This document shows, piece after piece, positions 6,077 through 32,268 of a stretch of 64,000 bases of DNA. Made by a program: the position numbers and the translations under genes. Below the pieces are notes generated by a model. That model worked only from the letters and a program-made list of their open reading frames with translations, did no database searches and had not been told where the DNA came from. The stretch's first letter is position 1. Each line of letters starts with the position of its first letter. The DNA is from an uncultured Bacilli bacterium (lineage in GTDB: Bacteria; Bacillota_I; Bacilli_A; RF39; UBA660): assembly GCA_910587325.1 (NCBI GenBank), contig CAJUKB010000004.1:16988-80987 (forward strand), written 5' to 3'.

Positions 6077-7358
6077 ATATATTCTTTTTCTTACTTACGA
6101 ATAAATAACCAATTCCTACAAGAGAGACAACAGCAAGTCCACTATGTAAGAAAACATTTAAGGTACCCGTTTGAGCATTATTGGTATTTTCTACTAAGAC
6201 ATATTCACTGCAATGTTCTAAAGCAAATTCTACAAAACCATTTTTTACTTCTAAGTTTTTAGCTGCTTCTTCTAACTTACCATTTTCATTATAATAATAT
6301 AATGTTAATTTTTTGCCGTTTTTAAATTGTTCTTCCACATTTACTTTTACTTTTGTTCCAGTTGGTAAAATTCCATGATAAGCAAATTCTAATACTACTG
6401 ATTTGCGATTTTTAGAAATTAAATTTTCAATTTTCTCTTTGTTAGTACTTTTACCAACATTTATATTTAAGTTTATGTTTAAATCGGTATTTTCTATTTT
6501 GCTACCATCAAAAGTCCAAGTATATAAAAGCTTATTTTCATCATTGTATGTAGAAATATTGGCTATATAACCACTTTGTTTAAACGCTTCTAAAGTATCT
6601 TTTGTTACTCCTGTTTCTCCTATGTATAATTCTACTTCATTGTTCTCAAAAACCGGTTTTACTTCTTCTAGCATTTCTTCAAGTGTTTTTTTATCCCAAT
6701 CCTTTATTGTAATAGTTTTAAAAATTTCAACTTCTTTAAAATTGATATTACGAAAACTCATAGAGAAGCCTTCTTCGTCTCCTCCGCCACCATAAGCTTG
6801 CCAATCAGGATATTTTTGAGGAATGACTTTATCAATTAATTCGTTAAGAACATCATGACCCTTTTCAATGCTTTCTACTTTGTTTTCTTTTGTATTATAA
6901 ATGATTGTTTCATAGTCATAATTCTTATCTTGTAAAAAGATTTCTACTAAAATGTCTGTAGTTGTAAAACTTTCATTTTGCATTTCATAAAATTGAGCAA
7001 TTGTCATACCAGAGGTTAACGCTGTATTTTCATCTACAATTGTTCCTTCTTCTTTATTTGCACTACATGTTGTGGAAGTAACAATTTTTAAACCATCTGT
7101 TTCACATTTGCCATCTGAACAACTTCCACCAAATTGTTCATTATTTACATTTCTAATTAGAAGATTAATTCTCTCTGTTTGATTATTTAAAGTCATATTT
7201 TTAAGTAATTTAAATTTAACTCCTAATTTATTATCTTCTTTCTTTACACATAAATTGTTTAAATCAATAAAGTTAGAAGTCTGTTCTTCTGCTTGGACAT
7301 TTGCAGAAATACTTAAAGTAAATAATGCAAGTAATATTCCTATTATTTTCTTTTTCAT
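6075..7358 (-). CDS. Sortase-anchored surface protein with C-terminal NAQTG sorting signal (paralog of 8415-9926)
   Basis: 427 aa. Signal peptide MKKKIIGILLALFTLSISANVQA. C-terminus is NAQTGTLNV followed by a hydrophobic stretch and a KKKNI tail. The C-terminal region is homologous to that of 8415-9926. Confidence 0.7.
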   Translation of the reverse strand: MKKKIIGILLALFTLSISANVQAEEQTSNFIDLNNLCVKKEDNKLGVKFKLLKNMTLNNQTERINLLIRNVNNEQFGGSCSDGKCETDGLKIVTSTTCSANKEEGTIVDENTALTSGMTIAQFYEMQNESFTTTDILVEIFLQDKNYDYETIIYNTKENKVESIEKGHDVLNELIDKVIPQKYPDWQAYGGGGDEEGFSMSFRNINFKEVEIFKTITIKDWDKKTLEEMLEEVKPVFENNEVELYIGETGVTKDTLEAFKQSGYIANISTYNDENKLLYTWTFDGSKIENTDLNINLNINVGKSTNKEKIENLISKNRKSVVLEFAYHGILPTGTKVKVNVEEQFKNGKKLTLYYYNENGKLEEAAKNLEVKNGFVEFALEHCSEYVLVENTNNAQTGTLNVFLHSGLAVVSLVGIGYLFVSKKKNI

Positions 7359-7386: not shown

Positions 7387-7415
7387 ATTATACCCCCACC
7401 CGAAGGCTTTGTCAA
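7387..7415 (-). promoter_or_regulatory. Consensus promoter TTGACA-N17-TATAAT with an interrupted G-tract (GGGGGTGGG) in the spacer
   Basis: Minus strand: -35 TTGACA at 7410-7415, -10 TATAAT at 7387-7392, RBS AGGAAAGGAAAG before the ATG at 7358. Paralogous to the G10 promoter at 9970-10000. Confidence 0.5.
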
Positions 7416-7433: not shown

Positions 7434-8309
7434 TTAATCTATTCGTTTGGCATGAATTACCCGTCTTTTGGTCGTTCCTCTTGCACCAGCGCAAGTAGAA
7501 AGCGTAAGGATTTTATCATTCGTATTCACAGTTACATCTCTAAAGCCAAAACTTCTATTTTTTATGGTCGTTATAAATTCTTGAAAGGCATTTTTATTTT
7601 CAAAAGAAGTTGTAATATAGTATTCTTCCATTTCAATTGTATAATAACTAAAGATTTGGTATTTATGTAACGTATGTTCCAAATCAAATAAATAAATCAT
7701 ATCGGCATTTTCTTCTTCAAAGTAATTTTTTTTAAAGATATCACTTAAAGAACCAAACATTGTATTATTAGGAGTGTGATGACCAAATAAAACCACATTG
7801 TCATCTTCTAAAGAAGTATTTCGATAATCCATAAAGATACTTCCAATTGAATTTTCTTTTTTCTTAAAAGAATGATTTAGATAGTAAGTATTATCACTTG
7901 CTTGGACGATGGGATTATTAACGTATTTATGGTTTAATACTAACCATCCGACAATATCATTATTCGTTTGTTTTAATTTAGAAAAATCAATTTTCATTTC
8001 TTCCACGTTTTCTTTTTCCTCAATTCCTTCATAAACTTCTGGTGGTTCGATAAATTCATCTAAAAGTTCTTCGATTTCATTTTGATTTTCTTTTAACTCT
8101 TTTTTAAACGTAATTAATTGATACATAGAAAAAAGGAAAACACTAATAAAAAACAAAAGTAAAAGCAAACGAATTATTTTTTTATATTTCAATTTTAATT
8201 TTCTTTTTGATTTTTTTCCTTTCTTTTTTGATTTTATTTTTTGCTTATTTTTTGAAGTTTTTAAATTAGCATGAGCAATATCATTGTTTTTCTTTTTGTT
8301 TTTATTCAT
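7434..8309 (-). CDS. srtB: Class B sortase
   Basis: 291 aa. Lys-rich N-terminus plus TM. Motifs DIVGWL, LFGHH and catalytic LTLSTC, typical of SrtB-type sortases. Flanked by two proteins carrying an N-A-Q-T-G signal. Confidence 0.75.
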   Translation of the reverse strand: MNKNKKKNNDIAHANLKTSKNKQKIKSKKKGKKSKRKLKLKYKKIIRLLLLLFFISVFLFSMYQLITFKKELKENQNEIEELLDEFIEPPEVYEGIEEKENVEEMKIDFSKLKQTNNDIVGWLVLNHKYVNNPIVQASDNTYYLNHSFKKKENSIGSIFMDYRNTSLEDDNVVLFGHHTPNNTMFGSLSDIFKKNYFEEENADMIYLFDLEHTLHKYQIFSYYTIEMEEYYITTSFENKNAFQEFITTIKNRSFGFRDVTVNTNDKILTLSTCAGARGTTKRRVIHAKRID

Positions 8310-8414: not shown

Positions 8415-9926
8415 TTATTGTTCTTTTTTCTTACTTATAATTAAGTACCCTATTCCTAACAAAGAAACAACAGCAAGTCCACTATACAAGACAACATTTA
8501 AAGTACCCGTCTGCGCATTGTTATTCTTTTTATGGTATCCATCACTTGGAACCAAAACATAGGTTGAGAAATGAGTAAATGTTAATTTTACATTGCCATC
8601 GGTTGCTTTTAAATTTTCTGCTACAACTTCCATTTGGTTTGTTTCAGGATTAAGGTATAATAGGGTTAAAGTTTTATTTTGTAGATAGTCCTTTACTTTT
8701 TCATTTACTTCTTTTTCTTGGACTGTCCAGCAAGCATTATATTTGTCTGGCTCTTTCTTATAATCGTATTGACTACATTGATATTTCTCATCTAATTTTT
8801 CCCAATATAAATTTCTAATATATTGTTCAATATTCACATTTAATTCATAATTCGTTGGTAAATTACCATGGTAGGTAAAATCAATATACAAAGCGTCATT
8901 TAAATCCATTAAATTGGCAATTTTGTCTTTGTTAATGCTTGTTTTCATTGAAATTTGATGTTCATAAGTAAAGCCTTTTTCCACCGTATTTTTTATATCT
9001 TTACCATTTAAATAGTAAGTCGAAGTTCCTACACTCGTGTCTTGAATAAACAAAACGGTTAAGTCTTTTCCTTTTAAAGCGTTAATTACTTCTGATATAT
9101 CTTCTTTAGAACTTCGAACTGAAAAATTATATTTTCCATAGCCATAAATACAGTCATGTGGAGAGTCTGGCATCACTTCTTGATACTTATCCAAATGGTT
9201 CAATATTTGAGTTAAACCTGCCGCACTTGAACCCATTTCACCGAAATCTCTTGCAGATATTGTCCAGTCAATTTTTATATCTTGTTTTCCAGTAGCACTT
9301 ACTGTTATACTAGATTTGCCTAAATCTTTTGCTTTGGTTACAACTTCTACTCCTGTAGGTTCACTGCTATATCCATAAGCTTCCCACCAAGTTTTCGGTT
9401 CACTTTTATAGTTACTAAACCCATATTCATTTGTATATTCCCACCAAGTTGGTTTTGAGGTGTAAGTAGATTTGCAATATTCACTATCCTTTGAGAAGTT
9501 ACCGTTTTCATCTTGACAATATTCATAATTTTTTAAGAACTCTTCAAAAGTGGCCTTGTTAAAATCTTCAACGTATCTTTCCCAATTTTGTTTTTCATTG
9601 GCATAATCATAAGGTTTTACTTCTACATCTAAAATGTTTGTGTTACTACTAACTGCAGAAACATTAGACACATTCTCAAAAAGAATATTTTCATTGTAAG
9701 GTTTGTTGTGAAAAGGCTTGTGAGGGTCCCAACTTCCTCGTCCTCCTTCATCATTATGCGCAATGCTATATTCCATTTGCATGTTTTCCCATTTTGTAGC
9801 ACCATAAGTTCTTGAAAGCGCTCTATCTTTAAAATACTCTTCCCAGTATCCATCCGCATAAACATTTGCACTTCCTAAAAATAAAAGTGTTGCAAATATC
9901 CCCAAGTAAGTAATTATTTTTTTCAT
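8415..9926 (-). CDS. Sortase-anchored surface protein with NAQTG sorting signal
   Basis: 503 aa. Signal peptide MKKIITYLGIFATLLFLGSANVYA. C-terminus NNAQTGTLNVVLYSGLAVVSLLGIGYLIISKKKEQ. Confidence 0.7.
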   Translation of the reverse strand: MKKIITYLGIFATLLFLGSANVYADGYWEEYFKDRALSRTYGATKWENMQMEYSIAHNDEGGRGSWDPHKPFHNKPYNENILFENVSNVSAVSSNTNILDVEVKPYDYANEKQNWERYVEDFNKATFEEFLKNYEYCQDENGNFSKDSEYCKSTYTSKPTWWEYTNEYGFSNYKSEPKTWWEAYGYSSEPTGVEVVTKAKDLGKSSITVSATGKQDIKIDWTISARDFGEMGSSAAGLTQILNHLDKYQEVMPDSPHDCIYGYGKYNFSVRSSKEDISEVINALKGKDLTVLFIQDTSVGTSTYYLNGKDIKNTVEKGFTYEHQISMKTSINKDKIANLMDLNDALYIDFTYHGNLPTNYELNVNIEQYIRNLYWEKLDEKYQCSQYDYKKEPDKYNACWTVQEKEVNEKVKDYLQNKTLTLLYLNPETNQMEVVAENLKATDGNVKLTFTHFSTYVLVPSDGYHKKNNNAQTGTLNVVLYSGLAVVSLLGIGYLIISKKKEQ

Positions 9927-9969: not shown

Positions 9970-10000
9970 ATTATACCCCCCCCCCGAAAACGTTTGTCAA
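9970..10000 (-). promoter_or_regulatory. Consensus promoter TTGACA-N19-TATAAT with a G10 homopolymer in the spacer (candidate phase-variable promoter)
   Basis: Minus strand: TTGACA at 9995-10000, G10 at 9976-9985 within a 19-nt spacer, TATAAT at 9970-9975, RBS AAGGAAGGG before the ATG at 9926. Confidence 0.55.
9976..9985. repeat. C10/G10 homopolymeric tract
   Basis: Ten consecutive C on the plus strand in DNA of about 25-28 % GC. Confidence 0.9.
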
Positions 10001-10019: not shown

Positions 10020-10979
10020 CTAATTTTCTCTTTTTGTTCTTTCCTTATCCATTTCTTTAATAATATACACAGGTCTTTTCTTTGCTTCTAAATATGTTTT
10101 AGAAAGATATTCTCCAATGATTCCTAAACAAAACAATTGAATGCCACTAACCAAAAATAAAATGCAAATCATAGAAGGCCAACCACTGGTTGGGTCTCCA
10201 AATAAAATGGTTTTTAAAACAATCACTAAAATCATTATAAAAGAAATGACACAAAATAGAATACCTATAAACGCTGAAATTGTTAAAGGCATTGTTGAAA
10301 ACGAAACTATTCCCTCAATGGCATATTTAAAAAGACTAAAAAAAGACCAACTTGTTTCTCCAGCAATTCTTTCTTTGTTTTCATATTCGAGCCATTTCGT
10401 ATTAAAGCCTACAAATCCAAATAATCCTTTAGAAAAACGATTGTATTCTTTTAAACTTAAAATGGCATTTCTAACATTCTTTCGCATTAAACGATAATCT
10501 CTTGCTCCATCAACAACTTCAATGTTGCTAATTTTGTTTATCAATTTATAAAACATTCTGGCAAAAAAACTACGAATTTTTGGTTCTCCCATTCTGGTAA
10601 CTCTTCTAGTAGCAACGCAATCTACATCTTTTTCACTTTTTAAAATGGCAAACATTTCAAGGAGAAGTTCAGGAGGGTCTTGTAAGTCAGCATCCATTAA
10701 AGCAACATAATCTCCTTTGGCATATGTAAGACCTGCTAACATAGCCGCTTCTTTACCAAAATTTCTTGATAAAGAAAGATAGTGAATACTTGAATTACGT
10801 TTACATAAGTCTTTCATTATTTTTAAGGTATTGTCTTTGGAACCATCATTGACAAGAATAAGTTCAACGTCTGTTTTTTTGAGTTCTTTTTTGATTTTTA
10901 AGATTTCATGATAAAAGAGTGGCAATGCCTCTTCTTCGTTATAACAAGCAACTACAATACTTATGGTTTCCTTTTTCAT
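10020..10979 (-). CDS. GT2 polyprenyl-phosphate glycosyltransferase (GtrB/CsbB/ArnC-like)
   Basis: 319 aa. SIVVACYNEE, DGSKDNT and DADLQD motifs, with two C-terminal TM helices typical of GtrB-like enzymes. Confidence 0.8.
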   Translation of the reverse strand: MKKETISIVVACYNEEEALPLFYHEILKIKKELKKTDVELILVNDGSKDNTLKIMKDLCKRNSSIHYLSLSRNFGKEAAMLAGLTYAKGDYVALMDADLQDPPELLLEMFAILKSEKDVDCVATRRVTRMGEPKIRSFFARMFYKLINKISNIEVVDGARDYRLMRKNVRNAILSLKEYNRFSKGLFGFVGFNTKWLEYENKERIAGETSWSFFSLFKYAIEGIVSFSTMPLTISAFIGILFCVISFIMILVIVLKTILFGDPTSGWPSMICILFLVSGIQLFCLGIIGEYLSKTYLEAKKRPVYIIKEMDKERTKREN

Positions 10980-12634
10980 TTTGTTTTCTCCTTTTTAATG
11001 ATTAAATAGATTGCAAATAAACCTACAGTGAATAAACTTATTTTATTTCCTACTCTACCTAGTGTAGTATTTTCATAAGTTACTTCGATGATTGCTTCTT
11101 GATTGGCTTCCATTTCGATAAAGCCATACTGGTTTTCTTTATAGTTGAGAAAAGTACTTTCACCGTTATAACCCATCATTTTTATGGTATATCCCAAATA
11201 ATATAATCTAGGTAGTTCTAGCTTTGCATAGTTTGTATTGGTAATTTTAAATCTTAAATTAGGAGTACTGTCTTCTATAATGCTTATATCGGCGTTTCCA
11301 TCGACGACTAAAATTTCTGTACTTCGATTGTGAAAGTAATCGATATGGTTTTTTGCATTCATCGGCAGATACTCTTCTTGGTACCCCATACCAACCTGAC
11401 TTAAATCGTAATAGCTCAAATCTTCTTTATGATACGTTTGCATGAGTATCGGAAGAATGGCAAAAAGAAAACAAGAAAAAATACAAAGTGCGAGCACTTT
11501 TTTTGATTTTAATTCGTTTAGAGCATAGTAAGACAATATGCTTAATCCAAAACATGTAAGTACTCCTAAGCGATAAGGAAATTGAATCATCAGTAAAAAG
11601 TTTGGCATTAAAAACCACGGGAATAAATGGGAAGAAAACCATATTCCTAGACATGTACAAATAACGCCCAAACAAAATAAAAAATCATTCTGAAGTTTTT
11701 CTTTAAATTTGTGTCTCTTCTTTAATTCATAAAGCAAATAAATGACTAGACCAAGAGCTACCCAATTTAGCATGTGAAAACCTATTTTTTTGCCACCAAG
11801 CAAGAATTGAAATAAGAACAAAGCATTGCCATACACACCAAAACGATTAGACATTTCGCCCTTTGTAAAAGCAACGTAATTTCCATTTAACAGATGAGTA
11901 AATAGTGGAATTAGAAACGGAAGGCTGATTAAAATGACTAAAAAGGTTGCGCATAATAAACGAAGAATAGTTTTTTTATTCCAAACTTTTTTAAAATGAA
12001 AAATAAGAAATATGCTTAAGAAAAGAGTTACGTAAATACTCATTACTAAGTGGGAGTTCAGTAGTCCAACGTATCCTAAGACAAAATAAAAATAAAATTT
12101 TTTAGACTGATTGTGGAACAAATAATAAATACCTAAAAAAATGAGAGGTAAAAATACAAAAACAAAAGATTCCGCTAATGCATCACGATATAAATAATCG
12201 TAAATTTTATAAGGTGCCGTTATATAAAATAGTGTAGCAATAAAGGATAAGTTCTTATGTTTTGTAATGGTTTTCATAAAAGTATACATCGTAATACCCG
12301 ATAAAAAGTTCAGTAAAAAATCGGTTATTTTGATGGATGTAAAAATAGTTCCAGGGGTATATTTATAAATAAGTGCTGTTATAAAATGAGGAAGATTGGG
12401 ATAGAAAATATTGGTTCCATAGCCAAAGTTATTGGCAATGAACGGAAGAATTTTTAAGTTTGCTATATTGGACCATTGTAAATTTTTAATAAAAGAGAGA
12501 ACATTAGCTACATGAAAACCCGTATCATGGCCATAAAAATAGTTATTACTTAATAGTGGAAAAAGTAGAAAGATTGAAATTAAAAAAATAAAAAAATAAT
12601 ATTTATCTATTTTAATTGGTATTCTTTTGTGCAT
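10976..12634 (-). CDS. Polytopic membrane protein, putative GT-C type glycosyltransferase (GtrC/YfhO-like partner of GtrB)
   Basis: 552 aa with more than 10 predicted TM segments. Start overlaps the stop of the GtrB-like gene. RBS AAAGGAGAAA. Confidence 0.45.
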   Translation of the reverse strand: MHKRIPIKIDKYYFFIFLISIFLLFPLLSNNYFYGHDTGFHVANVLSFIKNLQWSNIANLKILPFIANNFGYGTNIFYPNLPHFITALIYKYTPGTIFTSIKITDFLLNFLSGITMYTFMKTITKHKNLSFIATLFYITAPYKIYDYLYRDALAESFVFVFLPLIFLGIYYLFHNQSKKFYFYFVLGYVGLLNSHLVMSIYVTLFLSIFLIFHFKKVWNKKTILRLLCATFLVILISLPFLIPLFTHLLNGNYVAFTKGEMSNRFGVYGNALFLFQFLLGGKKIGFHMLNWVALGLVIYLLYELKKRHKFKEKLQNDFLFCLGVICTCLGIWFSSHLFPWFLMPNFLLMIQFPYRLGVLTCFGLSILSYYALNELKSKKVLALCIFSCFLFAILPILMQTYHKEDLSYYDLSQVGMGYQEEYLPMNAKNHIDYFHNRSTEILVVDGNADISIIEDSTPNLRFKITNTNYAKLELPRLYYLGYTIKMMGYNGESTFLNYKENQYGFIEMEANQEAIIEVTYENTTLGRVGNKISLFTVGLFAIYLIIKKEKTK

Positions 12635-12655
12635 ATAATTTTCTCCTTTTTAATA

Positions 12656-12686
12656 ATTATAACCCCCCCCCCAATGAAAAAGACAA
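12656..12686 (-). promoter_or_regulatory. Promoter-like TTGTCT-N19-TATAAT with a G10 tract in the spacer
   Basis: Minus strand: TTGTCT at 12681-12686, G10 at 12663-12672, TATAAT at 12656-12661, RBS AAAGGAG before the ATG at 12634. Confidence 0.5.
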
Positions 12687-12805
12687 ATACAATCGAGTTC
12701 AATTTAGGGCTATGAATTCAAAAGAAAAATAACCTTTTTTAAATAAGAGTTATTTTTTCTAAATTATATGCTGTAAGATTTCTTTTAAGTATCATACTAT
12801 AAAAC

Positions 12806-14422
12806 TTATTTTTCATAAGAAAGTAAAGGAATTAAAAAATCAAAAGGAAGCATTAATACAAATATATAAACATACCTTAAACTAAAAGCAATGGGCACTC
12901 CTATCATAATGGGAATCCAAATAAATAATCCAGGTATATATAAAATTAAATATCTATATTTTTTAGTTAAAAACGTAATGGTTATGCTTAAGAAGAAGAG
13001 CCAAATAAAGAATGCAGATGAAATAATTGGAAATGAATCTATTGTTTTTCGTAAAGAAAAATGAAACAATTCCTGTAGCAAATCTCTTTGCTCTACTAAA
13101 TCCGTATGTGTAGGCCATGTATAGGTTTGGATATAGGCGACACTGCTATTTTTTTTAATATCCCAATAACCAAGTGTTTGTAAAAGATAAGCCTCTATAT
13201 AGTTGTTAAAATTTTTGGGTAACAATCTAAACCAAATGTTAAAAAACTCTATTTTGTGAGAATTCAAAAAATCTTTATTAAAATCGTTGTTCCATTTTGT
13301 TGTATCAAAATTAAGGGGTTTAGCAGCAGTTTTCAAAACCTCTATTGGAATAATTTGATTTAGAAATTCTTTATCTTTTTCTTCTAAAGAAGCATCTTTT
13401 TTAACAGAATAAGAAATTTGTTGGAAAGGAATAGAAACACTTTCAATGAAATTATCCCCTTTTAAATGCAAATAGGAATAAATAGGTCCTTGTATCGCAA
13501 CGACAATTAAAATTAAACTCAAAATCGATAGTAAGAATTGTTTATTTATACTTTTTTTACATCTATAGTGACAAATAATAAGTACAAGAGTTGTTCCTAA
13601 AACTACAAAAAAACCATTATTCCTTAAGAAACAAACAAATAAAGATAATATGCAATAGAAAATTATGTCTTTTTTATTTTTGAAATCTGCTCGTGAACTC
13701 GTAAAAATATCAAAAAGAAAAGCAATATAAATGATTAAAACAAAATTAAATGGAGTATCTTTCCATATAGAAATAACATATAAAGGTATAAGCGGAAATA
13801 GTGCAAAGAAAGCAAGTACTAAAAAAGTCACCCTTTTTGGCAAGTTTTTCTTATGAATCACATATATAACATAACTTAATGCTAAGGCACAACCGATATA
13901 TTGAAAGAACCCAAAAAGAAGAATTCCCCCTGTTAAACCACTGCCTAAAATAGAACTTCCTAATGAAGTAAAGATTTTTAATGTAATGGTATACAAAATT
14001 GGATTATTATTGGATAAAAGACCAATTCCATTTACTTTAAAATTGGAAAGTTGTACGATAGAAGCATAAGTATCCGAATAAATTCCTCCTGGAAAATAGG
14101 ATAAAAAATAAGGAAGCCACGTAAGTAGTAATACACCAAAAGCAATCCAAAACAGATGAGGTATTTTTTTCGTATTTGCTTTTTCCATTTTTTTATTTAT
14201 ATGTTCATATATCTTTTGAAAAAAAGTAATAAAAATATAAGTAATGAAAAAGAAAATAATTTCTTTTCCAAAATCCTTAACGTGAAAGGAAGCAAAGGAA
14301 ACATCTGAAAAAACATTTATTTCTTCATTGCATATTAATTTTGAATCAAGCACTAACATGAAAGAAAAGACAAAAGAAAAAATGCTTTTTATAAAAATTG
14401 GTTTTTTCCATAATTTTTTCAA
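12806..14422 (-). CDS. Polytopic membrane protein, putative GT-C family glycosyltransferase
   Basis: 538 aa, multiple TM helices. The start may be an internal Met (MEKANTKK). Confidence 0.4.
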   Translation of the reverse strand: MKKLWKKPIFIKSIFSFVFSFMLVLDSKLICNEEINVFSDVSFASFHVKDFGKEIIFFFITYIFITFFQKIYEHINKKMEKANTKKIPHLFWIAFGVLLLTWLPYFLSYFPGGIYSDTYASIVQLSNFKVNGIGLLSNNNPILYTITLKIFTSLGSSILGSGLTGGILLFGFFQYIGCALALSYVIYVIHKKNLPKRVTFLVLAFFALFPLIPLYVISIWKDTPFNFVLIIYIAFLFDIFTSSRADFKNKKDIIFYCILSLFVCFLRNNGFFVVLGTTLVLIICHYRCKKSINKQFLLSILSLILIVVAIQGPIYSYLHLKGDNFIESVSIPFQQISYSVKKDASLEEKDKEFLNQIIPIEVLKTAAKPLNFDTTKWNNDFNKDFLNSHKIEFFNIWFRLLPKNFNNYIEAYLLQTLGYWDIKKNSSVAYIQTYTWPTHTDLVEQRDLLQELFHFSLRKTIDSFPIISSAFFIWLFFLSITITFLTKKYRYLILYIPGLFIWIPIMIGVPIAFSLRYVYIFVLMLPFDFLIPLLSYEK

Positions 14423-14441
14423 TTTTATTCACTCCTTACTT

Positions 14442-15986
14442 TTAATATAAAAATGTTGTTATCATTTCGAGCATAACTATATAATTCAAAACTATAGTTA
14501 TATAGGCAAGAATATATTTATTGATTTTTATAGGATTTTTCACTTTAAAAAATAGTAAAGCACAAATTATTGGGAAAAAGTATCTACCCTGAATGCCTAT
14601 AATAGTTCTTGCTCCTTCATAAGTACATAAATATAAAGCAGTACAAATGAGCACAAATATGCTACCTAAAATTCCTACTATGAAAATCGTTTTTTTCCAA
14701 ACATTATCTCTATTTTTCTCTTCTGAAAGAAAAGCAAATAAATTAACCATAATAAATCCAAAATTTACAATAGGAAAAGGCCTTACTTGCCAATGACATA
14801 GAAATTCTCCAGCGAAAATATTTTCTAAATAATTATAACCATTTTGAGCAATTGTATTTAATACTACCATAAGATAGCGAATAGGCTGTTGCATAATCCA
14901 ATTATTTGGAGCTTCAGTATTACTAGCCATAGCAGCTTCAGATGTGGCAGTCCATTTTAATAGTTCTTGCCAACCTAAATTCATAGAAATTCCTATAGCT
15001 ATATATATAATCTTTACTATTATTTCTTGCTTTTTACTTTTAAAACATTCATGTGGTAATAGAAGAATTAGAAAGACAAATGGCAAATACACTACTTTGG
15101 CTAAAGATACACAAATTGTTAGTAAGAATAAAAGGAAATAGTCTTGCCATTTGAAACTTTTTTTCTCTTTTATTTTACTTAAAATATAGCTTATAAACAG
15201 GAAGGAATAAGCTATCGTTGTTCCATCTGCTGAAAAAGAAGCACTATAAGATAAAAAGGTAGGAGATAGCATTAAAATAAGAGCAAAAAACTTTCCATTT
15301 GGAAGCAATTTAATTCCAACAGATACCAAAGATACACAAAATAGTAAACTTAAAAAACGACCAATTATGCCACAAAAATATGGATTTAAATGAAATAATT
15401 TTCCAAGCAATATTCCTAAAACATGAGGAATATAGTTTACAATCGAATAATTTGCTGCACTGATTTTTAAATTTCCCTTTTCTCCTTGGTTTAGTTGAAT
15501 TTTAGATATCTTTAACATATCTTCGTATTTTTTATATTCGGCTTGCTTTTCATTATTATAAATACTATCAATAACACTTTTATCAAAGCTATTCTGTCGA
15601 CTATTCTCATAATAGGGAGTGGTAAAGTAGCCTTCACTTAATTCATATGCTCTTAAATAATGCGCAGGTTCATCGCTTTGTGTAAAAAGAGGCATTATAA
15701 ACAAATAACAAATTCCTAGTAGCATAGCAATAATGAAATATTGCTTATGTAATTTTTTCACTTTTGTTGTATCTATAAAAGAAGTGGCAATTAAAGTAAA
15801 AACAAGTGTAATTAACCCTAAAATGATATATCCGTTTAAATACTTTGTGTCTAGCGCATCTGCATATAAATCGGCTTGCAAATTTTTATAATAAAAAAGA
15901 AAAGCAGTCAATAAAATAATTGCTATAGCTACTAATCTAATTACTTTTCCTTTTTTTTCATGATTTAAAATTGTTTTTAGCTTCAA
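14442..15986 (-). CDS. Polytopic membrane protein (DUF2142-like), putative glycan-modifying GT-C
   Basis: 514 aa, many TM helices. The SDEPAHYLRAYE motif resembles the DUF2142 family. Confidence 0.4.
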   Translation of the reverse strand: MKLKTILNHEKKGKVIRLVAIAIILLTAFLFYYKNLQADLYADALDTKYLNGYIILGLITLVFTLIATSFIDTTKVKKLHKQYFIIAMLLGICYLFIMPLFTQSDEPAHYLRAYELSEGYFTTPYYENSRQNSFDKSVIDSIYNNEKQAEYKKYEDMLKISKIQLNQGEKGNLKISAANYSIVNYIPHVLGILLGKLFHLNPYFCGIIGRFLSLLFCVSLVSVGIKLLPNGKFFALILMLSPTFLSYSASFSADGTTIAYSFLFISYILSKIKEKKSFKWQDYFLLFLLTICVSLAKVVYLPFVFLILLLPHECFKSKKQEIIVKIIYIAIGISMNLGWQELLKWTATSEAAMASNTEAPNNWIMQQPIRYLMVVLNTIAQNGYNYLENIFAGEFLCHWQVRPFPIVNFGFIMVNLFAFLSEEKNRDNVWKKTIFIVGILGSIFVLICTALYLCTYEGARTIIGIQGRYFFPIICALLFFKVKNPIKINKYILAYITIVLNYIVMLEMITTFLY

Positions 15987-15999
15987 TTTTAACTACTCC

Positions 16000-17193
16000 T
16001 TACTCTTCCTCATATACTTCATAACATTTGACATAAAATTTCATTATTATTTTCACAAGAAAATTTGGCCAAAATTTACGAAACATAATCGTATCTTCAA
16101 TTTGTCTTGTACTATTTTTAATCCAAGAGGCTGTGGTTGCTTCTTCATGTATGCGAAATGAAATTAATTTCATAGGAATATATTTTACTTTTCCCTTTTT
16201 AGAATAAATTTTATGAAAAGTATCCCAATCAAGCGCAAACTTTAATTCACTCGTAAATATAGGCTCTCCAAGTAACTTTTTATTATACGTTACAGAAGGA
16301 CAATTTATGGTATTCCCAAAAGCAAGAGTTAATTTACGAATCCACCTTATATTTGCAAATCCAGGAACACGTAATGGAGATTTAATCAGTTTTTTAATAA
16401 TTAAATTCTTATCTGCAATGTTTTTTCCATCTTTCAGAAAATAATTTTCTGTTGAAATCATTAATTCTTTGCCAGTGTAATTATTTAATATATTTTCTAA
16501 ATAATAGGGATCATAAACATCATCTTGATGAGCAACAGTTACAAGTTCAGTATGAGACATTTCTACTCCATAATTCCAATCCTCTTGAATATCACTTTCT
16601 CCTTTACGATAATATACATCTAGTTTATGTTTCTTTGCTAAATTATCAATATGTTTATTCTTTGTAGAAGAAACTATAATAATATTAGATTTTAAACTTT
16701 GTGTTTTTAAAGATTTTATACATTCTTCTAAATAAGGCGATTCTTTATAGGCACAAATGGCAAAGGTATGATACTTTTTTGGATGTTTCAAATACTTATT
16801 CTCTTTCCCACTAAATACCCAAATTCTACTAAACAAAAAGTTATAAGGAACAGTAACGCAAAGAGTAAGAATAGGAGCCAACATTTCTGAAAATCCTAGA
16901 ACATCTACTAATAAATACATACATCCTAAATTGATAAAATAACTACTTCCATACACAACATAATATTTCATAATAGAACGATTATCATAAACATTTTTCT
17001 TAAATACCCATCCATTGTTTAAAAGAAAACCAAGAATAGAACTTAGGAAAAAAGCAATGGTAGTTGCAATTAAATAATTGATATTTAAAAACAAAAAACT
17101 ATAATAAAATATCCAAGAACTAAAGGTATTGATACACCCTACTATGCCAAATTTAACAAATTGTTTTACTAATTGTTCTACTTTTGTTTTCAT
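16000..17193 (-). CDS. GtrA-like flippase domain fused to a GT2 glycosyltransferase
   Basis: The N-terminal ~120 aa have GtrA-family 4-TM architecture (KFGIVGCINT...NNGWVF). The C-terminal GT2 domain contains TFAICAYKESPYLEECIKSLKTQS ... HQDD. Confidence 0.55.
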   Translation of the reverse strand: MKTKVEQLVKQFVKFGIVGCINTFSSWIFYYSFLFLNINYLIATTIAFFLSSILGFLLNNGWVFKKNVYDNRSIMKYYVVYGSSYFINLGCMYLLVDVLGFSEMLAPILTLCVTVPYNFLFSRIWVFSGKENKYLKHPKKYHTFAICAYKESPYLEECIKSLKTQSLKSNIIIVSSTKNKHIDNLAKKHKLDVYYRKGESDIQEDWNYGVEMSHTELVTVAHQDDVYDPYYLENILNNYTGKELMISTENYFLKDGKNIADKNLIIKKLIKSPLRVPGFANIRWIRKLTLAFGNTINCPSVTYNKKLLGEPIFTSELKFALDWDTFHKIYSKKGKVKYIPMKLISFRIHEEATTASWIKNSTRQIEDTIMFRKFWPNFLVKIIMKFYVKCYEVYEEE

Positions 17194-18782
17194 TTTCTAA
17201 CTTCCTCATATATATCAACCCAATTAAATTCTACATCTTGTGGTATATTAAAATATTCCAACATCCAATAATTTATAGAGGGCTCTTCATAGGCTCTTGA
17301 TACTCCAAAAGAAGTATCTTTGCTTTTGTATAAAGTAATTACTTTTTCGGTTGTTCCATTATGATTTTTTAAAATGTCATAGTTTAATCTCTCAATAGCA
17401 TAATTAGCTAGATAACCATTATAAACAATACTAAAATTATAAGCACTTTTAAGAGCAAAGGGACAGATGGTGAAAACAATCGCTAAGACAAAATACAATT
17501 TACTATCTTTTAATAACTCATTAATAAATATTGCTATTAGGGCAAAAATGAAGAAGATAAATGGTAAAGCCGTTCTTCCTCCTACCACAGGAGAAACCAC
17601 TAAGCAAAATATAGAGCCACAACCACTAATGGCAATAGGAATAATTTCCATTTTCTTTTTTTGGTAGCTATATATAATCATCCATATTCCTATATATAAA
17701 ATCCAAAGTATTCCATACACAACTCCAATGATTTTAAAATGCTTTTGTAGTAAGACACAAAGAACACTTAGGATTAAAAAAAGAATATTCGATAAATAAA
17801 TGGTTCTATTTTTTATAGTAAGATCCTGACGATATTTTATTAAACAAACTAAAAATACTAGCGTTAATATCATCATAAAAATTGTCATTTCCGAACGAAA
17901 TATTACCAATAGTAGAGAAGGTAAATTTTTCATTACTTTTCCGATAAGACTTAAGCTAGCAAATTCAACATTCGTATCCATTCGAGCAAAATTTCCCGGT
18001 GCTAACAAAAGCAAAGCTAAACTAATGATACAAACCAAAACATTGGGAATATTTAATAAATTAAATTTTTTGAAATTCTTTCCTTGTTTAAAGATTATAA
18101 ATAACGTTAAAAAAGCGAACATCGCAACACCAATTTGTTCTTGAGAAAATGTTGCAAAGAAATTTAATACTAGTAGTACTAGCAGATAAAGATAATAATT
18201 TACTTTTTCTTTGTTTTCTATTTTTTCTGTTAATTTCATATATAAATAAATAAAAATAAACATAGGAAGTAATGGCCATATATACAAAATGGAAGCTGAA
18301 GCCCAATAAATTCCATGTCTTAAAAATGTCATATGAATTAATCCATACAAAATAAATAAAACAATAGGAATTAATAAATGCTTCTGCTTTGTAATTTGTT
18401 CTACTATTTTATATATAAAATAAAATATAAAAGTAATCACAACGCTTTGAATAGCAAAATAAATACCTGCGCCAAATTTTAACAAAGGAATTAAAAATAC
18501 GGATGCCCATAGTATTCTTCCTCCCCAAGTCATATAAATCATCTTACACCATTCCCATAATTGGGTGAAATTATAGTTAGTCCCTATAATATCCTCTGAT
18601 GATTGTCCATAGCTTAAAGAAGCATTTCCAAAGTCATCAAAGTACATGGCTAGCAAATGGTGCATAGCAAATAAAATAACAAAAATGACAAAAAACACAA
18701 GAAAATAATGTAAGTTATCGTTAATTTTTTGTTTTTTACTTTGTAAAAAATTTTCTAACTTTTCAAAGCTATTTCTTATCAT
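17190..18782 (-). CDS. Polytopic membrane protein, putative GT-C family
   Basis: 530 aa, more than 10 TM helices. Translationally coupled to the upstream GtrB-like gene. Confidence 0.4.
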   Translation of the reverse strand: MIRNSFEKLENFLQSKKQKINDNLHYFLVFFVIFVILFAMHHLLAMYFDDFGNASLSYGQSSEDIIGTNYNFTQLWEWCKMIYMTWGGRILWASVFLIPLLKFGAGIYFAIQSVVITFIFYFIYKIVEQITKQKHLLIPIVLFILYGLIHMTFLRHGIYWASASILYIWPLLPMFIFIYLYMKLTEKIENKEKVNYYLYLLVLLVLNFFATFSQEQIGVAMFAFLTLFIIFKQGKNFKKFNLLNIPNVLVCIISLALLLLAPGNFARMDTNVEFASLSLIGKVMKNLPSLLLVIFRSEMTIFMMILTLVFLVCLIKYRQDLTIKNRTIYLSNILFLILSVLCVLLQKHFKIIGVVYGILWILYIGIWMIIYSYQKKKMEIIPIAISGCGSIFCLVVSPVVGGRTALPFIFFIFALIAIFINELLKDSKLYFVLAIVFTICPFALKSAYNFSIVYNGYLANYAIERLNYDILKNHNGTTEKVITLYKSKDTSFGVSRAYEEPSINYWMLEYFNIPQDVEFNWVDIYEEVRK

Positions 18783-19737
18783 TTATTAAAACCTCCTCAA
18801 TCGTATATCTTGGTCTTTGTTTTGTTTCACTATAAATTTTGCCAATATATTCTCCAATAATTCCAATACAAAAAATTTGAAACCCACCAAAGAAACTAAC
18901 TAAAGTAACAATGGTAGTCCATCCTTCTACGTTTCCTGTTATAAAATGACCAATTACTACATAAAGTAGAAATATAAAACTAATAAAAGATATAAATAGA
19001 CCAAACAATGTAATAATTCTTAAAGGTTTTACACTAAAGGATAAAATTCCTTCTATGGCAAAATTCAACATCTTTTTTAAAGGATATTTACTTTCTCCCG
19101 CAAATCTTTCTTGTCTTTCGTAATACACAGTAGAAGTTTTAAATCCAATTAAAGGGATAATTCCTCTTAAAAATAAGTTTACTTCTTTATAATTTGCTAG
19201 TTCTTCTAATGCTCTTTTACTCATAAGTCGATAATCAGCATGGTTATAAACAACATCTACTCCTAAAAACTTCATAAATTTATAAAACATTTGGGCTGTG
19301 TGTTTTTTAAAAAAACTATCTTTCTTACGGTTATTTCTAACACCATATACAATGGCAGAACCTTCTAGATATTCATTCACCATTTGATCCATAACCTCTA
19401 TGTCATCTTGTAAATCGGCGTCCATACTAATCACAATGTCAGCGTATTCTTTGGCTGTCATAAGTCCTGCTAAAAGAGCATTTTGGTGTCCCCTATTTTT
19501 TGATAAATTCACACCTGTGACTAAGTTATTTTCTTGGTTGAATTTTGTAATTAATTCCCAAGTGTTATCCTTTGAGCCATCATTTACATACATGATTTTG
19601 CTTTTTTTATCAATGCGTTTATCTTTAATCATTTGGGTTAGTTTTTCTGTTAATCGTTTGGTTGTTTCTTTTAGTACTTCACTTTCGTTGTAGCAAGGTA
19701 CTACAACATATAATATATTACTTTTTTTAGTTGCCAT
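18769..19737 (-). CDS. GT2 polyprenyl-phosphate glycosyltransferase (second GtrB/CsbB-like copy)
   Basis: 322 aa. VVVPCYNESE, DGSKDNT and DADLQD motifs, with C-terminal TM helices. Confidence 0.8.
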   Translation of the reverse strand: MATKKSNILYVVVPCYNESEVLKETTKRLTEKLTQMIKDKRIDKKSKIMYVNDGSKDNTWELITKFNQENNLVTGVNLSKNRGHQNALLAGLMTAKEYADIVISMDADLQDDIEVMDQMVNEYLEGSAIVYGVRNNRKKDSFFKKHTAQMFYKFMKFLGVDVVYNHADYRLMSKRALEELANYKEVNLFLRGIIPLIGFKTSTVYYERQERFAGESKYPLKKMLNFAIEGILSFSVKPLRIITLFGLFISFISFIFLLYVVIGHFITGNVEGWTTIVTLVSFFGGFQIFCIGIIGEYIGKIYSETKQRPRYTIEEVLINDKK

Positions 19738-19843
19738 GTAAATCCTCCACCCTATATATTTATTATAGCACGTATTTTGGGAATAATTGTAAATAAGTGG
19801 AAATTTGGATCAAAAGAAAAAGTTATATCGTTTCAAATAACTT

Positions 19844-21823
19844 TTATTTCTTTTCATAAATTTTTATATATTTGGCTACTTGTATTTTTTTATCATATTT
19901 TTGAAAATACTCTTCCATTTTGCTTTTCACTATTTTTTTATTTTCAAGTTTATGAATGGCTTCTAGATAATTTTCTAAAGTATCTCCTTTTAACACTATT
20001 CCATTTCCCGAATTTATTAGTTCCTTTACAGCACTTGTTCCTAATACAATTACTGGAGTTCCACAGGCTACCGACTCTAATGTAGTCAACGAAAAAGTTT
20101 CTTCTTTAGAAGGATTTATAAATACGCTTGCTTTTGTATAAAGAACTGCTAATTCATCTTGATTTTCAGTTCGTTGTATACCAATCATATTCGGTTTTAA
20201 CTTTTTTAATTGTATTTTATTTAATCCTACTAAAACTATTTTATATTCATCATCGATTTTTTCTGCTAGTTCTTTAAATACTTTTAATCCTTTTCTCTCA
20301 TCCCAGACACTTGCAACACCTAAGATTATTTTTTTGTTGTTTGGTATATTATATTTGAACAATACATTGGTATCTTCACTTGGCTTAAATAGTTCATAAT
20401 TTATCCAATTATGAACTGTAATAATTGGGTACTTTGAAAAAAAGGATTGTTCTACTAATTTTTTTAACCAATCAGATGGAGTTATAATCGTTAAATTTGA
20501 AATATTTGTGAATAATTCTTTTTTCTCCATATAATTCTTTTTAGAACGATCATAAAATAAACTAATGGGATATTGTTTTTTATTAGGACATTTAAAACAT
20601 TGTTCTTTCCATCTGTTACAATCTATTGCTACAAAATGAGGGCAATGTCCCGTAAAAGGATAACAATCATGGAAAGTCCAAAATAATTTTCCACTAAATT
20701 CATTTTTTAAATACGTAAATAAAACTTTATAGTTTAAATAATATCCATGAATATTATGAAGATGAATAATATCGGGATTTTCTTCTTTTAAAATTCGTAC
20801 TATTTTTTTTGTTTTGAAATAAGAGCCATGCCCATTCAAATCAAAAACAGTTGTAATAAAAACATGAAACCAAAAGGAAAAAAAACCTCCTACTTTAATA
20901 CACTTTAAATCTTTGTATCCTTTTCTTCTAGCATATATTACTAATGTTTCATAGCCTTCGCTATTGGCTTTTCTTCCAATATCTCCCATAATTTTACCAG
21001 TTGAACCATTGCATACTGAATTAATTTGAATTAGTTTTGGTTGCTTTTTTTTTACTTGTAATGCACGTTTAATTTCTTTTTTGTTATTGATAGCAAATCT
21101 TTGGTGATACATTCCAAAAGTTCTTTTTATATTTGTTAGAAACGGAAGTAATACTTTATTCTTTTTTAATACTTTATAGCTTTCTTTAAAATTATTATAG
21201 TATCCTTTTAAACCATTTGTACTGGCTCCTCCTGCACGCATGTAAACAAAATAATCATTTATGTATTTTAAATTCACATTATTTTTTATTAATCTTAACA
21301 TAAAGTCTAAATCCGCAGAAACTCTAAAATTTAAATCAAAGTTTCCATATTTCTCATACACTTCTTTTTTTAAATATAACGTTGGATGTGGCATATGCCA
21401 ACCAAATTTTTTAGATATTTTTTTTGACTTAAATAAACGATATGGTTTCTCTAATTTTTCATCTAGCATTAAAAGATTAGAATAAACACCATCTGTTTTT
21501 TTGATATTCTCTACTACGGATTGGAAAACGTTTGGGTGGGCTAAAATATCATCGGAATTAATAATTCCTATGATATTTCCATTTGCAAGTTTTATTCCCT
21601 TGTTCATAGCATCAAAAAGACCTTTGTCACTTTCTGAAACCCATTTTAATTTTCCATTAAATTTTTTTTCATATTCTTTTACTATGTTTAATGTACTGTC
21701 TTTACTTTTTCCATCTATAATCAAATATTCGTAATTGTCATAGTTTTGCGATAGCACACTTTCTAGAGTGTCTTTTATTGTTTTTTCAGCATTAAAGCAT
21801 ACAGTTATTATAGTTATTTTCAT
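19844..21823 (-). CDS. Bifunctional glycosyltransferase (N-terminal GT2 plus C-terminal GT4)
   Basis: 659 aa. GT2 signature ITVCFNAEKTI...DGKSKDST...NSDD, and a C-terminal GT4 EX7E-like region (SKEETFSLTTLESVACGTPVI). Confidence 0.7.
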   Translation of the reverse strand: MKITIITVCFNAEKTIKDTLESVLSQNYDNYEYLIIDGKSKDSTLNIVKEYEKKFNGKLKWVSESDKGLFDAMNKGIKLANGNIIGIINSDDILAHPNVFQSVVENIKKTDGVYSNLLMLDEKLEKPYRLFKSKKISKKFGWHMPHPTLYLKKEVYEKYGNFDLNFRVSADLDFMLRLIKNNVNLKYINDYFVYMRAGGASTNGLKGYYNNFKESYKVLKKNKVLLPFLTNIKRTFGMYHQRFAINNKKEIKRALQVKKKQPKLIQINSVCNGSTGKIMGDIGRKANSEGYETLVIYARRKGYKDLKCIKVGGFFSFWFHVFITTVFDLNGHGSYFKTKKIVRILKEENPDIIHLHNIHGYYLNYKVLFTYLKNEFSGKLFWTFHDCYPFTGHCPHFVAIDCNRWKEQCFKCPNKKQYPISLFYDRSKKNYMEKKELFTNISNLTIITPSDWLKKLVEQSFFSKYPIITVHNWINYELFKPSEDTNVLFKYNIPNNKKIILGVASVWDERKGLKVFKELAEKIDDEYKIVLVGLNKIQLKKLKPNMIGIQRTENQDELAVLYTKASVFINPSKEETFSLTTLESVACGTPVIVLGTSAVKELINSGNGIVLKGDTLENYLEAIHKLENKKIVKSKMEEYFQKYDKKIQVAKYIKIYEKK

Positions 21824-32227: not shown

Positions 32228-32268
32228 TGCACTGATACTATACTTGTCTCGATTGGCTTTTATTATTT

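Follow-up and report, generated by a model that had tools for sequence, protein, structure and literature searches.

Predicted bactoprenol-dependent glycosylation modules and hypermutable G-tract promoters in a wall-glycopolymer locus of an uncultured gut Bacilli lineage

Introduction

Multi-component transmembrane glycosylation of Gram-positive wall polymers is known from CsbB/YfhO of Bacillus subtilis, Staphylococcus aureus and Listeria, CsdAB/CD/EF of Lactococcus lactis, and GacI-J-K-L of Streptococcus pyogenes (PMC8035078). Here we analyze positions 10020–19737 of a 64-kb stretch of DNA (the window; 27% GC) from an uncultured gut Bacilli/"Tenericutes" lineage, in which seven genes reproduce the logic of these systems. 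As in CsbB/YfhO, Csd and Gac, a gene for a glycosyltransferase family 2 (GT2) undecaprenyl-phosphate (Und-P)-sugar synthase stands beside a gene for a polytopic GT-C transferase, the flippases are of the GtrA or Wzx type, several modules occur per genome (L. lactis and B. subtilis have three each), and the modules lie in or beside a wall-polysaccharide locus with an ABC exporter and a GacI/GacJ-type pair. Unlike those systems, the present one has four GT-C proteins of four sequence families within 9 kb, all scoring below the Pfam thresholds of YfhO and PMT_2, to which the characterized enzymes belong; its sole GtrA is fused to a GT2 domain; one module has a hypermutable G-tract promoter; and the host is an uncultured, Tenericutes-like member of the gut Bacilli.

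We interpret the locus as encoding several extracytoplasmic glycosylation modules that depend on bactoprenol. Slipped-strand phase variation would affect one of these modules, along with neighboring sortase-anchored proteins and a rhamnosyltransferase; we give this interpretation a probability of about 0.72. The original prediction, made from the sequence of the window, had likewise proposed multiple such modules, and family and fold identities, gene pairings and conservation across species all support it; the donor sugars, the acceptors and the synthase that would serve the DUF2142 and DUF6020 proteins are inferred.

The gtrABC clusters of Salmonella and its phages, including STM0557–0559, share the three-component logic, and the DUF6056 family found here is named after the GtrC protein STM0557. 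Salmonella gtr operons are phase-variable, and the resulting glycan heterogeneity affects recognition by phages and antibodies (PMC2909390). The Salmonella switch, however, is epigenetic (Dam methylation and OxyR) rather than a slipped-strand tract, and its acceptor is the lipopolysaccharide O-antigen of a Gram-negative cell, whereas in the present locus gtrA and GT2 form a fusion and the module under tract control has a GT-C enzyme of another family.

For the promoters, the closest counterparts are porA of Neisseria meningitidis and tp0126 and the tpr genes of Treponema pallidum, where a G tract of 8–11 nt lies between the sigma-70-type −35 and −10 elements of a surface-component promoter (PMC7864442). 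Tract length varies in both cases, between and within isolates there (PMC7864442) and between metagenomic contigs here. The hosts there are Gram-negative and spirochaete and the genes encode outer-membrane proteins; the host here is a low-GC Gram-positive-type gut commensal, the predicted targets are a lipid-linked glycosylation module, a rhamnosyltransferase and sortase substrates, and the modal G10 spacer is 19 nt.

Gene organization

The seven open reading frames (ORFs) of 10020–19737 are all found where they had been predicted, all on the minus strand, and form two putative transcription units. The genes for GtrB-2, the DUF6056 protein, the GtrA–GT2 fusion, the DUF2142 protein and the DUF6020 protein lie tightly packed in one unit, with an ordinary extended −10 promoter in front, for which the candidate is TGcTATAAT at 19762–19770 (minus strand, called by consensus match), a site with no G tract; the ribosome-binding sequence GGAGG precedes the GtrB-2 ATG at 19737. 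The genes for the YfhO-like GT-C protein and GtrB-1 are a second, translationally coupled unit behind a G10-tract promoter. Overlaps join GtrB-2 to DUF6056 (14 nt), DUF6056 to the fusion (4 nt), and the YfhO-like gene to GtrB-1 (4 nt).

The pairings recur in other species. YfhO-like and GtrB-1 genes are adjacent in three related-species contigs (L029, L031 and L035), and the order GtrB-2, DUF6056, GtrA–GT2, DUF2142 recurs in another (L024). Gene overlaps with the GtrB genes, together with adjacency conserved across species, link the four GT-C candidates genetically to lipid-sugar synthases.

Candidate lipid-sugar synthases

The two GT2 genes predicted to be GtrB-like are confirmed as such by homology. 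GtrB-1 (10020–10979, minus strand; 319 aa) is a GT2 protein that matches PgfS (314 bits) and ArnC (152 bits) over its full length; GtrB-2 (18769–19737, minus strand; 322 aa; Pfam GT2, 87 bits) likewise matches PgfS (245 bits) and ArnC (150 bits) over its full length. In addition, GtrB-1 matches the crystal structure of Synechocystis GtrB sll0501 (5EKP) with 256 bits over its full length (residues 6–310 against 28–329) and the ArnC structure 9HWJ with 135 bits. The paralogs are 37% identical over their full length and have in common a DADLQD (DxD) motif. Both show the homology and architecture of GtrB/CsbB/ArnC-type enzymes, with an N-terminal GT-A domain carrying the DxD motif followed by two C-terminal transmembrane (TM) helices (hydropathy; hydrophobic segments 223–292 and 231–295, respectively). 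Because both scores fall below the NCBIfam equivalog cut-off for PgfS (500 bits), the two proteins are family relatives, not orthologs, of PgfS or any other named enzyme. On sequence grounds, GtrB-1 and GtrB-2 are candidate Und-P-sugar synthases.

A further pair, overlooked by the original prediction, lies outside 10020–19737, at 26833–27914 (minus strand). A TM-less 246-aa GT2 protein (27174–27914) of polyprenyl-phosphate type directly precedes a 113-aa DUF2304 membrane protein (26833–27174; DUF2304, 86 bits), which is the arrangement of the GacI/GacJ (PpgS/Rv3632) class. The best matches of the GT2 protein are PpgS (79.5 bits), AglJ and a dolichyl-phosphate (Dol-P)-hexose transferase, all with scores below the equivalog cut-offs. 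In S. pyogenes, GacI/GacJ produces N-acetylglucosamine-P-Und, and GacJ, itself a 113-aa DUF2304 protein, activates GacI. By this resemblance the pair is probably a fourth candidate lipid-sugar synthase, which brings the candidates to as many as four for four GT-C enzymes.

The GtrA–GT2 fusion

The GtrA–GT2 fusion (16000–17193, minus strand; 397 aa) consists of a Pfam GtrA_DPMS_TM domain (82 bits, residues 14–127) and a GT2 domain from residue 144. Both predicted domains are thus present, but the GT2 half is not GtrB-like by sequence: it is a generic GT-A catalytic domain with an HQDD motif. The fusion holds the sole GtrA-family domain of the 64-kb window, in which no second or stand-alone GtrA was found. 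Its family has 2,181 homologs, keeps its architecture unchanged down to 45% identity and goes under the NCBI name "GtrA family protein"; unfused, GT2-only relatives also exist.

A PDB sequence search with the fusion protein gave nothing useful. With the profile of the fusion family (A3), the GtrA half matched the TM domain of the archaeal Dol-P-mannose synthase (DPMS) 5MLZ (E = 2.8e-9), and the GT2 half matched only generic GT2 enzymes (chondroitin synthase, 6P61, 9OMJ and SpsA), with no match to the catalytic domain of GtrB, ArnC or DPMS in the PDB. Pyrococcus furiosus DPMS (5MLZ) likewise has a GT2 catalytic domain together with a GtrA-like membrane domain of four helices, and it is this membrane domain that the GtrA half of the fusion resembles; the order is reversed in the fusion, where GtrA is N-terminal, and the catalytic domains are without specific similarity.

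The fusion is possibly a lipid-sugar synthase. Alternatively, it may not be a third synthase at all but an ordinary cytoplasmic GT-A enzyme, acting on a lipid-linked or polymer acceptor and tethered to the GtrA domain, which would act as flippase for the GtrB modules. The purely generic matches of its GT2 half point in this direction, as do the GT2-only relatives and the fact that the only GtrA domain in 64 kb resides here, so that a flippase role for the other modules is needed. Set against this are the match of the GtrA domain to the Dol-P-binding membrane domain of 5MLZ, which shows that synthases built from GT2 and a GtrA-like TM domain are known (the order being reversed here), the strong conservation of the family and the position of the gene between two GT-C genes in a conserved order. 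We regard the alternative as doubtful, while giving it appreciable weight.

Four GT-C candidates

Four large proteins encoded at 10976–12634, 12806–14422, 14442–15986 and 17190–18782 have 8–12 TM segments by hydropathy, in agreement with their predicted multi-TM character. The prediction had counted five polytopic membrane proteins; only four large ones lie in the range, although the GtrA domain of the fusion is also a membrane domain. A 503-aa protein downstream was considered as the fifth and rejected, since its signal peptide and C-terminal sorting signal mark it as a sortase substrate.

Profile searches, proposed with the prediction as a check, assigned three of the four to families. The DUF6056 (GT_STM0557_N) protein (17190–18782; 530 aa, ~12 TM) matches PF19528 with 99 bits, the DUF2142 protein (14442–15986; 514 aa, ~9–11 TM) matches PF09913 with 149 bits, and the DUF6020 protein (12806–14422; 538 aa, ~10 TM, GT-C fold) matches DUF6020 with 119 bits. 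The fourth (10976–12634; 552 aa) is a divergent YfhO/DUF6541/PTPS_related-like GT-C protein with only sub-threshold matches to YfhO and DUF6541 (22 bits); for Pfam YfhO (PF09586) it scores 22.3 bits against a gathering threshold of 28.5. All four genes are on the minus strand.

PDB searches, including those with the YfhO-like protein, the DUF2142 protein and a DUF2142 profile, gave no sequence-level match to a solved structure for any of the four. We built alignments of metagenomic homologs and predicted the structures of two of the polytopic proteins, and comparison of the predicted structures with solved ones identified the GT-C fold; the 552-aa family (profile A1) is accordingly a fold-confirmed GT-C family. 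The predicted DUF6020 structure has a pLDDT of 91, and its 19 best structural matches are all GT-C, led by ALG12 (17.5), ALG3 (15.1), Pmt4 (14.7), GPI-MT-I (14.7) and ArnT (14.2), enzymes that use Dol-P-monosaccharide donors. D117, in the acidic motif of the first extracytoplasmic loop, is invariant in 51 DUF6020 sequences.

Among 61 homologs of the 552-aa protein, 11 match YfhO, 21 match PTPS_related and 14 match DUF6541; judged by these matches, the family is a separate lineage between the three, without a Pfam model. Residues D37 and H41, in the first extracytoplasmic loop, occur in at least 90% of the 61 sequences, and the C-terminal part of the protein comprises a beta-sandwich domain and the terminal TM helix.

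For DUF2142 we used a 60-sequence profile from a representative library, in which the family comprises 8,762 clusters. Residues D105, H109, R210, K232 and D254 are invariant, and E106 is present in at least 90% of the 60. This profile aligns with profile A1 over 309 columns (hhalign; Prob 92.5%, E = 4.7e-7), placing D105/E106/H109 of DUF2142 on D37/H41 of the YfhO-like family in the first extracytoplasmic loop. Single-sequence-versus-profile comparisons for DUF2142 and DUF6056 were uninformative, and two other profile pairs aligned weakly (A1 against A2, Prob 48%; A4 against A2, Prob 25%). The DUF2142 protein is a putative GT-C homolog that may act as a mono-glycosylase or, like WpsJ, as a side-chain ligase. 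As for the DUF6056 protein, PF19528 is now named GT_STM0557_N in Pfam, and STM0557 is gtrC of the Salmonella gtr-LT2_I cluster (PMC2909390), which makes this protein a candidate GtrC-type transferase and partner of GtrB-2. The profile alignment of DUF2142 with a GT-C family and the naming of DUF6056 speak against these membrane proteins being transporters or polymerases unrelated to GT-C enzymes, the outcome that had been put forward as fatal to the prediction.

DUF2142 proteins also occur in the cwps/rgp loci of lactococci and Streptococcus thermophilus (WpsI/WpsJ-like), which resemble this one in being bipartite, with an ABC-dependent backbone and a Wzx-dependent side chain. There the role, polymerase or side-chain ligase, is assigned by prediction only; here, by comparison, the gene stands in a conserved block with GtrB-2, DUF6056 and GtrA–GT2. 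At least one GT-C protein, most likely DUF2142 and/or DUF6020, might then be a WpsJ-like ligase that joins a Wzx-flipped undecaprenyl-pyrophosphate (Und-PP)-linked oligosaccharide or polymer to an ABC-exported backbone, or a WpsI-like polymerase. Such roles (WpsI polymerase, WpsJ GT-C transferase) have been proposed for DUF2142 proteins in lactococcal, Pseudolactococcus and S. thermophilus loci, and the Wzx-type flippase at 24008–25531, with many cytoplasmic glycosyltransferases upstream, implies a side-chain pathway that needs a ligase. Furthermore, neither the DUF2142 nor the DUF6020 gene directly adjoins a GtrB-type gene, and the DUF2142 gene comes after the fusion, whose synthase role is uncertain. 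By contrast, four candidate synthases are available for the four GT-C enzymes if the GacI/GacJ-like pair is counted, the nearest structural neighbors of DUF6020 (ALG12, ALG3, Pmt4, GPI-MT-I and ArnT) use Dol-P-monosaccharide donors, the window offers other ligase or polymerase candidates (the fusion at 50018–52195 and the 455-aa ORF at 33991–35358), and the block order GtrB-2, DUF6056, GtrA–GT2, DUF2142 is conserved. We consider a ligase or polymerase among the four unlikely, if worth keeping in view.

G-tract promoters

The window contains exactly three G or C runs longer than 6 nt, all of them G10 on the gene-sense strand. Overlapping G8 matches number 9 against 0.09 expected at 27% GC, an excess of about 100-fold, and the tracts lie in promoter spacers only. 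By consensus match to the −35 and −10 boxes we called four promoter sites, all on the minus strand.

Promoter A (12656–12686), read from the sequence, consists of TTGTCT, 8 nt, G10 (12663–12672), a single t and TATAAT, giving a 19-nt spacer; it lies before the YfhO-like/GtrB-1 pair, and the tract is 29 nt upstream of the ATG at 12634. The prediction that at least one module stands behind a G10 promoter thus holds for 10976–12634, and the tract proves hypermutable. Promoter B (9970–10000), upstream of the 503-aa surface protein, consists of TTGACA, 9 nt, G10 (9976–9985) and TATAAT, again with a 19-nt spacer. Promoter C (42436–42466; ATAACA, 9 nt, G10 at 42442–42451, TATAAA) precedes a gene for a Cps2T/WchF-type beta-1,4-rhamnosyltransferase (41239–42393, minus strand; DUF1972–GT4; NCBIfam Cps2T 458 bits with a cut-off of 500, DUF1972 170 bits). 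Promoter D (7387–7415), upstream of a 427-aa surface protein, has an interrupted tract, GGGTGGGGG (9 nt), within TTGACA-17-TATAAT, a 12/12 match to consensus. In relatives, promoter D has G10 (18-nt spacer) or G9, and the GGGTGGGGG allele of this strain apparently locks a switch whose tract is G10 or G9 in other strains.

Tract C also falls within the last 14 codons of the upstream gene (42405–43328), which encodes a TOD1/MUCI70-like glycosyltransferase. The product of that gene is 307, 300 or 296 aa long across contigs; a change in tract C length therefore rewrites the C-terminal tail of the upstream protein and alters the internal promoter of the rhamnosyltransferase gene.

The 503-aa protein (8415–9926, minus strand) is by translation and hydropathy a secreted sortase substrate with an NNAQTGT sorting signal, a TM helix and a KKK tail. 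It is followed by a sortase gene (7434–8309, minus strand; PF04203, 52.8 bits) and a gene for a 427-aa sortase substrate, also with NNAQTGT (6075–7358, minus strand). The 427-aa protein is a paralog of the C-terminal half of the 503-aa protein; the two share the unusual NNAQTGT–TM–KKK end, flank the sortase and have a G-tract promoter each. Neither has a Pfam match.

Tract-length variation

We compared about 26 near-identical metagenomic contigs (99–99.8% identical to the window), retrieved by exact-protein look-ups. At tract A, lengths of G10 and G11 were found on two independent haplotypes, the 4.5 kb of flank showing 0 mismatches. Tract C has G9, G10 and G11 alleles on backgrounds that differ by 0–1 single-nucleotide polymorphism over 2.7 kb, and tract D is G9, G10 or interrupted among strains. 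Five Logan contigs (L008, L009, L010, L190 and L194) begin or end exactly at a G tract, which suggests that length heterogeneity within samples breaks assemblies there. Since length differs between otherwise identical flanks and contigs end at tracts, the G tracts in these promoter spacers are hypermutable. Frameshifted-looking genes in a contig of an NCBI metagenome-assembled genome (MAG; L015) were rejected as pseudogenes; they are N-runs or artefacts of assembly.

Similar tracts are found more widely. G8–G11 tracts occur in 12 related-species loci, often beside TTGACA-like boxes. All 17 of these tracts (contigs L017–L072) lie on the same strand as PFOR and most genes, the G-rich strand being the sense strand; one, in L032, apparently follows directly on an ATG and might switch translation. 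In JGI metagenomes, a scan for exact TTC-G10-TATAAT matches returned 88 contigs (L097–L184) of 30–62% GC, many from human gut. Among 52 unique contexts, 23 combine a 19-nt spacer with a box that agrees with TTGACA at 5 or more of 6 positions, and no other spacing is found more than 5 times, so that the geometry of promoter B (TTGACA-N9-G10-TATAAT) is the modal one. Genes downstream of these tracts often encode LPXTG adhesins and lipoproteins, and a PucR-type regulator in 21 contigs.

The tracts might instead be static promoter or structural elements, or their lengths artefacts of assembly or sequencing, with no meaningful phase variation. At each site G10 greatly predominates over the other lengths, the 13 complete contigs without exception have G10 at tract B, sequencing of homopolymers is prone to error, and the modal geometry in 52 unrelated contexts, a fixed 19-nt spacer at G10, could be a selected functional length. 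These points are outweighed in our view by the variation itself: length is the sole difference over 2.7–4.5 kb and recurs on independent haplotypes and in independent sequencing projects, tract C has three alleles, and contigs end repeatedly at tracts. In addition, the interrupted allele is a perfect 17-nt consensus promoter, the tracts are strongly over-represented in AT-rich DNA and confined to promoter spacers, the downstream genes (adhesins, lipoproteins and glycan genes) are classic contingency-locus cargo, and experiments have established the same mechanism for T. pallidum and N. meningitidis (PMC7864442). We judge static or artefactual tracts very unlikely.

Proposed mechanism

On the cytoplasmic face, GT2 enzymes (GtrB-1, GtrB-2, probably the GacI/GacJ-like pair and possibly the fusion) would transfer the sugar of a nucleotide sugar to undecaprenyl phosphate. 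The lipid-linked sugar would be flipped by the GtrA domain of the fusion or by Wzx, and on the outside four GT-C enzymes of four families (DUF6056, DUF2142, DUF6020 and YfhO-like) would move it onto wall polymers that have already been exported. Gain or loss of a G in tract A by replication slippage would change the spacer length and with it promoter strength, an effect postulated by analogy with porA and tp0126. The G10 tract before the YfhO-like/GtrB-1 pair is thus probably a random on/off switch, and the outcome would be subpopulations with and without the corresponding decoration. Because the same promoter design drives two sortase-anchored proteins and the rhamnosyltransferase, several surface structures are probably varied independently. 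The purpose of such surface variation is most plausibly escape from phages and host antibody.

A number of observations weigh against this scheme. First, the porA and tp0126 promoters are optimal at 17-nt spacing, and at tprL G8 is active and G10 near background (PMC7864442). By this sigma-70 rule the G10 spacers here, of 19 nt (18 nt at one site), are suboptimal; at tract A the 19-nt and 20-nt alleles might both be OFF, or else G-rich spacers might not follow the 17-nt rule. Tract B is without length variation in the 13 complete contigs, and an assembly consensus hides heterogeneity within a sample. Second, a scan found no intrinsic terminator between the two units; an AT-rich hairpin at ~12715–12760 is weak (z = −1.2), so read-through from the upstream block could blunt any switch. 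Third, the GT2 half of the fusion lacks a GtrB, ArnC or DPMS match, the motif YFDDFGN (D49, D50) that directly follows TM1 of the DUF6056 protein is kept in L017 in a comparison of two sequences only, and not every GT-C protein need be a GtrC-type mono-glycosylase, because DUF2142 proteins have been proposed elsewhere as side-chain ligases or polymerases. Finally, the 64-kb window has no rml (dTDP-rhamnose) genes, so a rhamnan backbone is merely suggested by the Cps2T-like enzyme.

Some or all of the modules might also glycosylate proteins rather than polysaccharides or teichoic acids, like Pgf of Streptococcus mutans or the streptococcal GtrB-plus-GT-C O-glycosylation of Ser/Thr-rich disordered regions. 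PgfS is the best NCBIfam match of both GtrB paralogs (314 and 245 bits), the G-tract-controlled module is directly upstream of two sortase-anchored surface proteins and a sortase, PMC12041528 describes streptococcal GtrB-dependent O-glycosylation of intrinsically disordered regions of membrane proteins, and three proteins at 53485–58872 have moderately Ser/Thr-rich stretches. However, an equivalog cut-off of 500 puts the PgfS scores far too low, Ser/Thr-rich regions are absent from the two adjacent sortase substrates, and the modules are embedded in a polysaccharide- or teichoic-type biosynthesis locus. Moreover, in related species the YfhO-like/GtrB-1 pair occurs without surface-protein genes between it and PFOR. 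Protein glycosylation therefore seems improbable to us, and transfer to wall polymers remains the preferred interpretation.

Each component and mechanism of this scheme is already known; what is new is the combination, the host lineage and the uncharacterized families. The variant features are four GT-C families per block, a GtrA–GT2 fusion family that is itself uncharacterized, one GtrB/GT-C module with a slipped-strand G-tract promoter and co-varying surface proteins beside it, and a little-known gut host. Neither G-tract promoter switches in gut Firmicutes nor GtrA–GT2 fusions turned up in our literature search, an absence that is weak evidence given the incomplete coverage.

We tentatively propose, at somewhat less than even odds, that this lineage, and by the metagenome evidence many gut Firmicutes, use TTGACA-N9-G10-TATAAT as a general contingency switch, here with independent switches for a glycan-decoration module, for initiation of a rhamnose-containing polysaccharide and for two sortase-anchored proteins, and with combinatorial variation by slipped-strand mispairing. 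Such a strategy has so far been documented mainly in Gram-negative pathogens, spirochaetes and mycoplasmas, and this would be the first extracytoplasmic GtrB/GT-C glycosylation switched by a promoter homopolymer.

In Gram-positive bacteria, the way in which wall glycans are decorated determines whether phages adsorb, whether lectins and antibodies recognize the cell and how well it resists lytic enzymes. If the scheme is correct, four mechanistically similar and evolutionarily distinct decorating enzymes are encoded within 9 kb, and putative functions follow for DUF6020, DUF2142, the YfhO-like lineage without a Pfam model and a GtrA–GT2 family of more than 2,000 members. The hypermutable promoters suggest stochastic surface diversification in abundant uncultured gut commensals, which would bear on phage–host dynamics and IgA targeting. 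Because assemblies break at G tracts, the interpretation of strain-level metagenomics would be affected as well. A practical gain is a short list of enzyme pairs and a simple sequence signature for contingency loci in gut Firmicutes.

The surrounding locus

Positions 10020–19737 are the distal part, or edge, of a ~50-kb cell-envelope/wall-glycopolymer locus in a walled gut lineage. Related MAGs are from uncultured gut Bacilli/"Tenericutes" of mouse and rabbit. In a genome contig scan, the best identity of the neighboring PFOR-like protein was 87% in MAGs and 64% in Mycoplasma sp. CAG:776, and the YfhO-like protein had no relative among the species representatives. The locus contains a WecA-type initiating enzyme, the Cps2T/WchF-type rhamnosyltransferase, an ABC-2 exporter, many GT2 and GT4 enzymes, acyltransferases and Wzx, together with an O-antigen-ligase-like/GT4 fusion, an LCP ligase and a LicD/choline-kinase/BCCT phosphocholine set. 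The rhamnosyltransferase gene is the first of an ABC-transporter-dependent polysaccharide block, with the ABC-2 permease and ATPase genes downstream. The Wzx/MOP-type flippase (24008–25531, minus strand; PF01943, NCBIfam WZX_like weakly; ~10 TM) is, from its family matches, a candidate for flipping Und-PP-oligosaccharide or, like GacK, an Und-P-sugar.

Upstream of the GT-C block, the window has a gene for a 659-aa GT2–GT4 fusion (19844–21823). At this place, directly upstream of GtrB-2, contigs L012 and L014 (positions 1–1134) carry genes for a DegT-type aminotransferase and a hexapeptide acyltransferase. Because of these different genes, the GT-C block is the conserved edge of a strain-variable glycan region.

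Transposase remnants at 31748–33568 (an HTH_21/rve fragment and a DDE_Tnp_1 gene) lie between the Wzx-type and ABC-transporter-type clusters, which suggests that the locus was assembled, or is being rearranged, by mobile elements. A 455-aa ORF (33991–35358), beside an acyltransferase gene, has ~9 TM segments and matches nothing in Pfam or NCBIfam; possible identities are a Wzy-type polymerase and a further GT-C protein. At 50018–52195, adjoining the WecA-type initiating enzyme, is a 725-aa fusion of an O-antigen-ligase-like polytopic domain (~11 TM) with GT4. A tRNA search of the window found none.

The proteins at 53485–58872 include cadherin-like and dockerin-containing proteins and a 699-aa LCP–PASTA fusion with a Thr/Asn-rich low-complexity tail. 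Three of them, the LCP–PASTA fusion included, hold the only moderately Ser/Thr-rich stretches in the window and are, by composition, the only obvious acceptor candidates if modules glycosylate proteins. The phosphocholine decoration set spans 44988–49929 and consists of a BCCT choline transporter, a LicC-like nucleotidyltransferase, a 595-aa HTH/nucleotidyltransferase/choline-kinase fusion and, on the opposite strand, LicD; it therefore implies choline-substituted wall polymers, as in pneumococcus.

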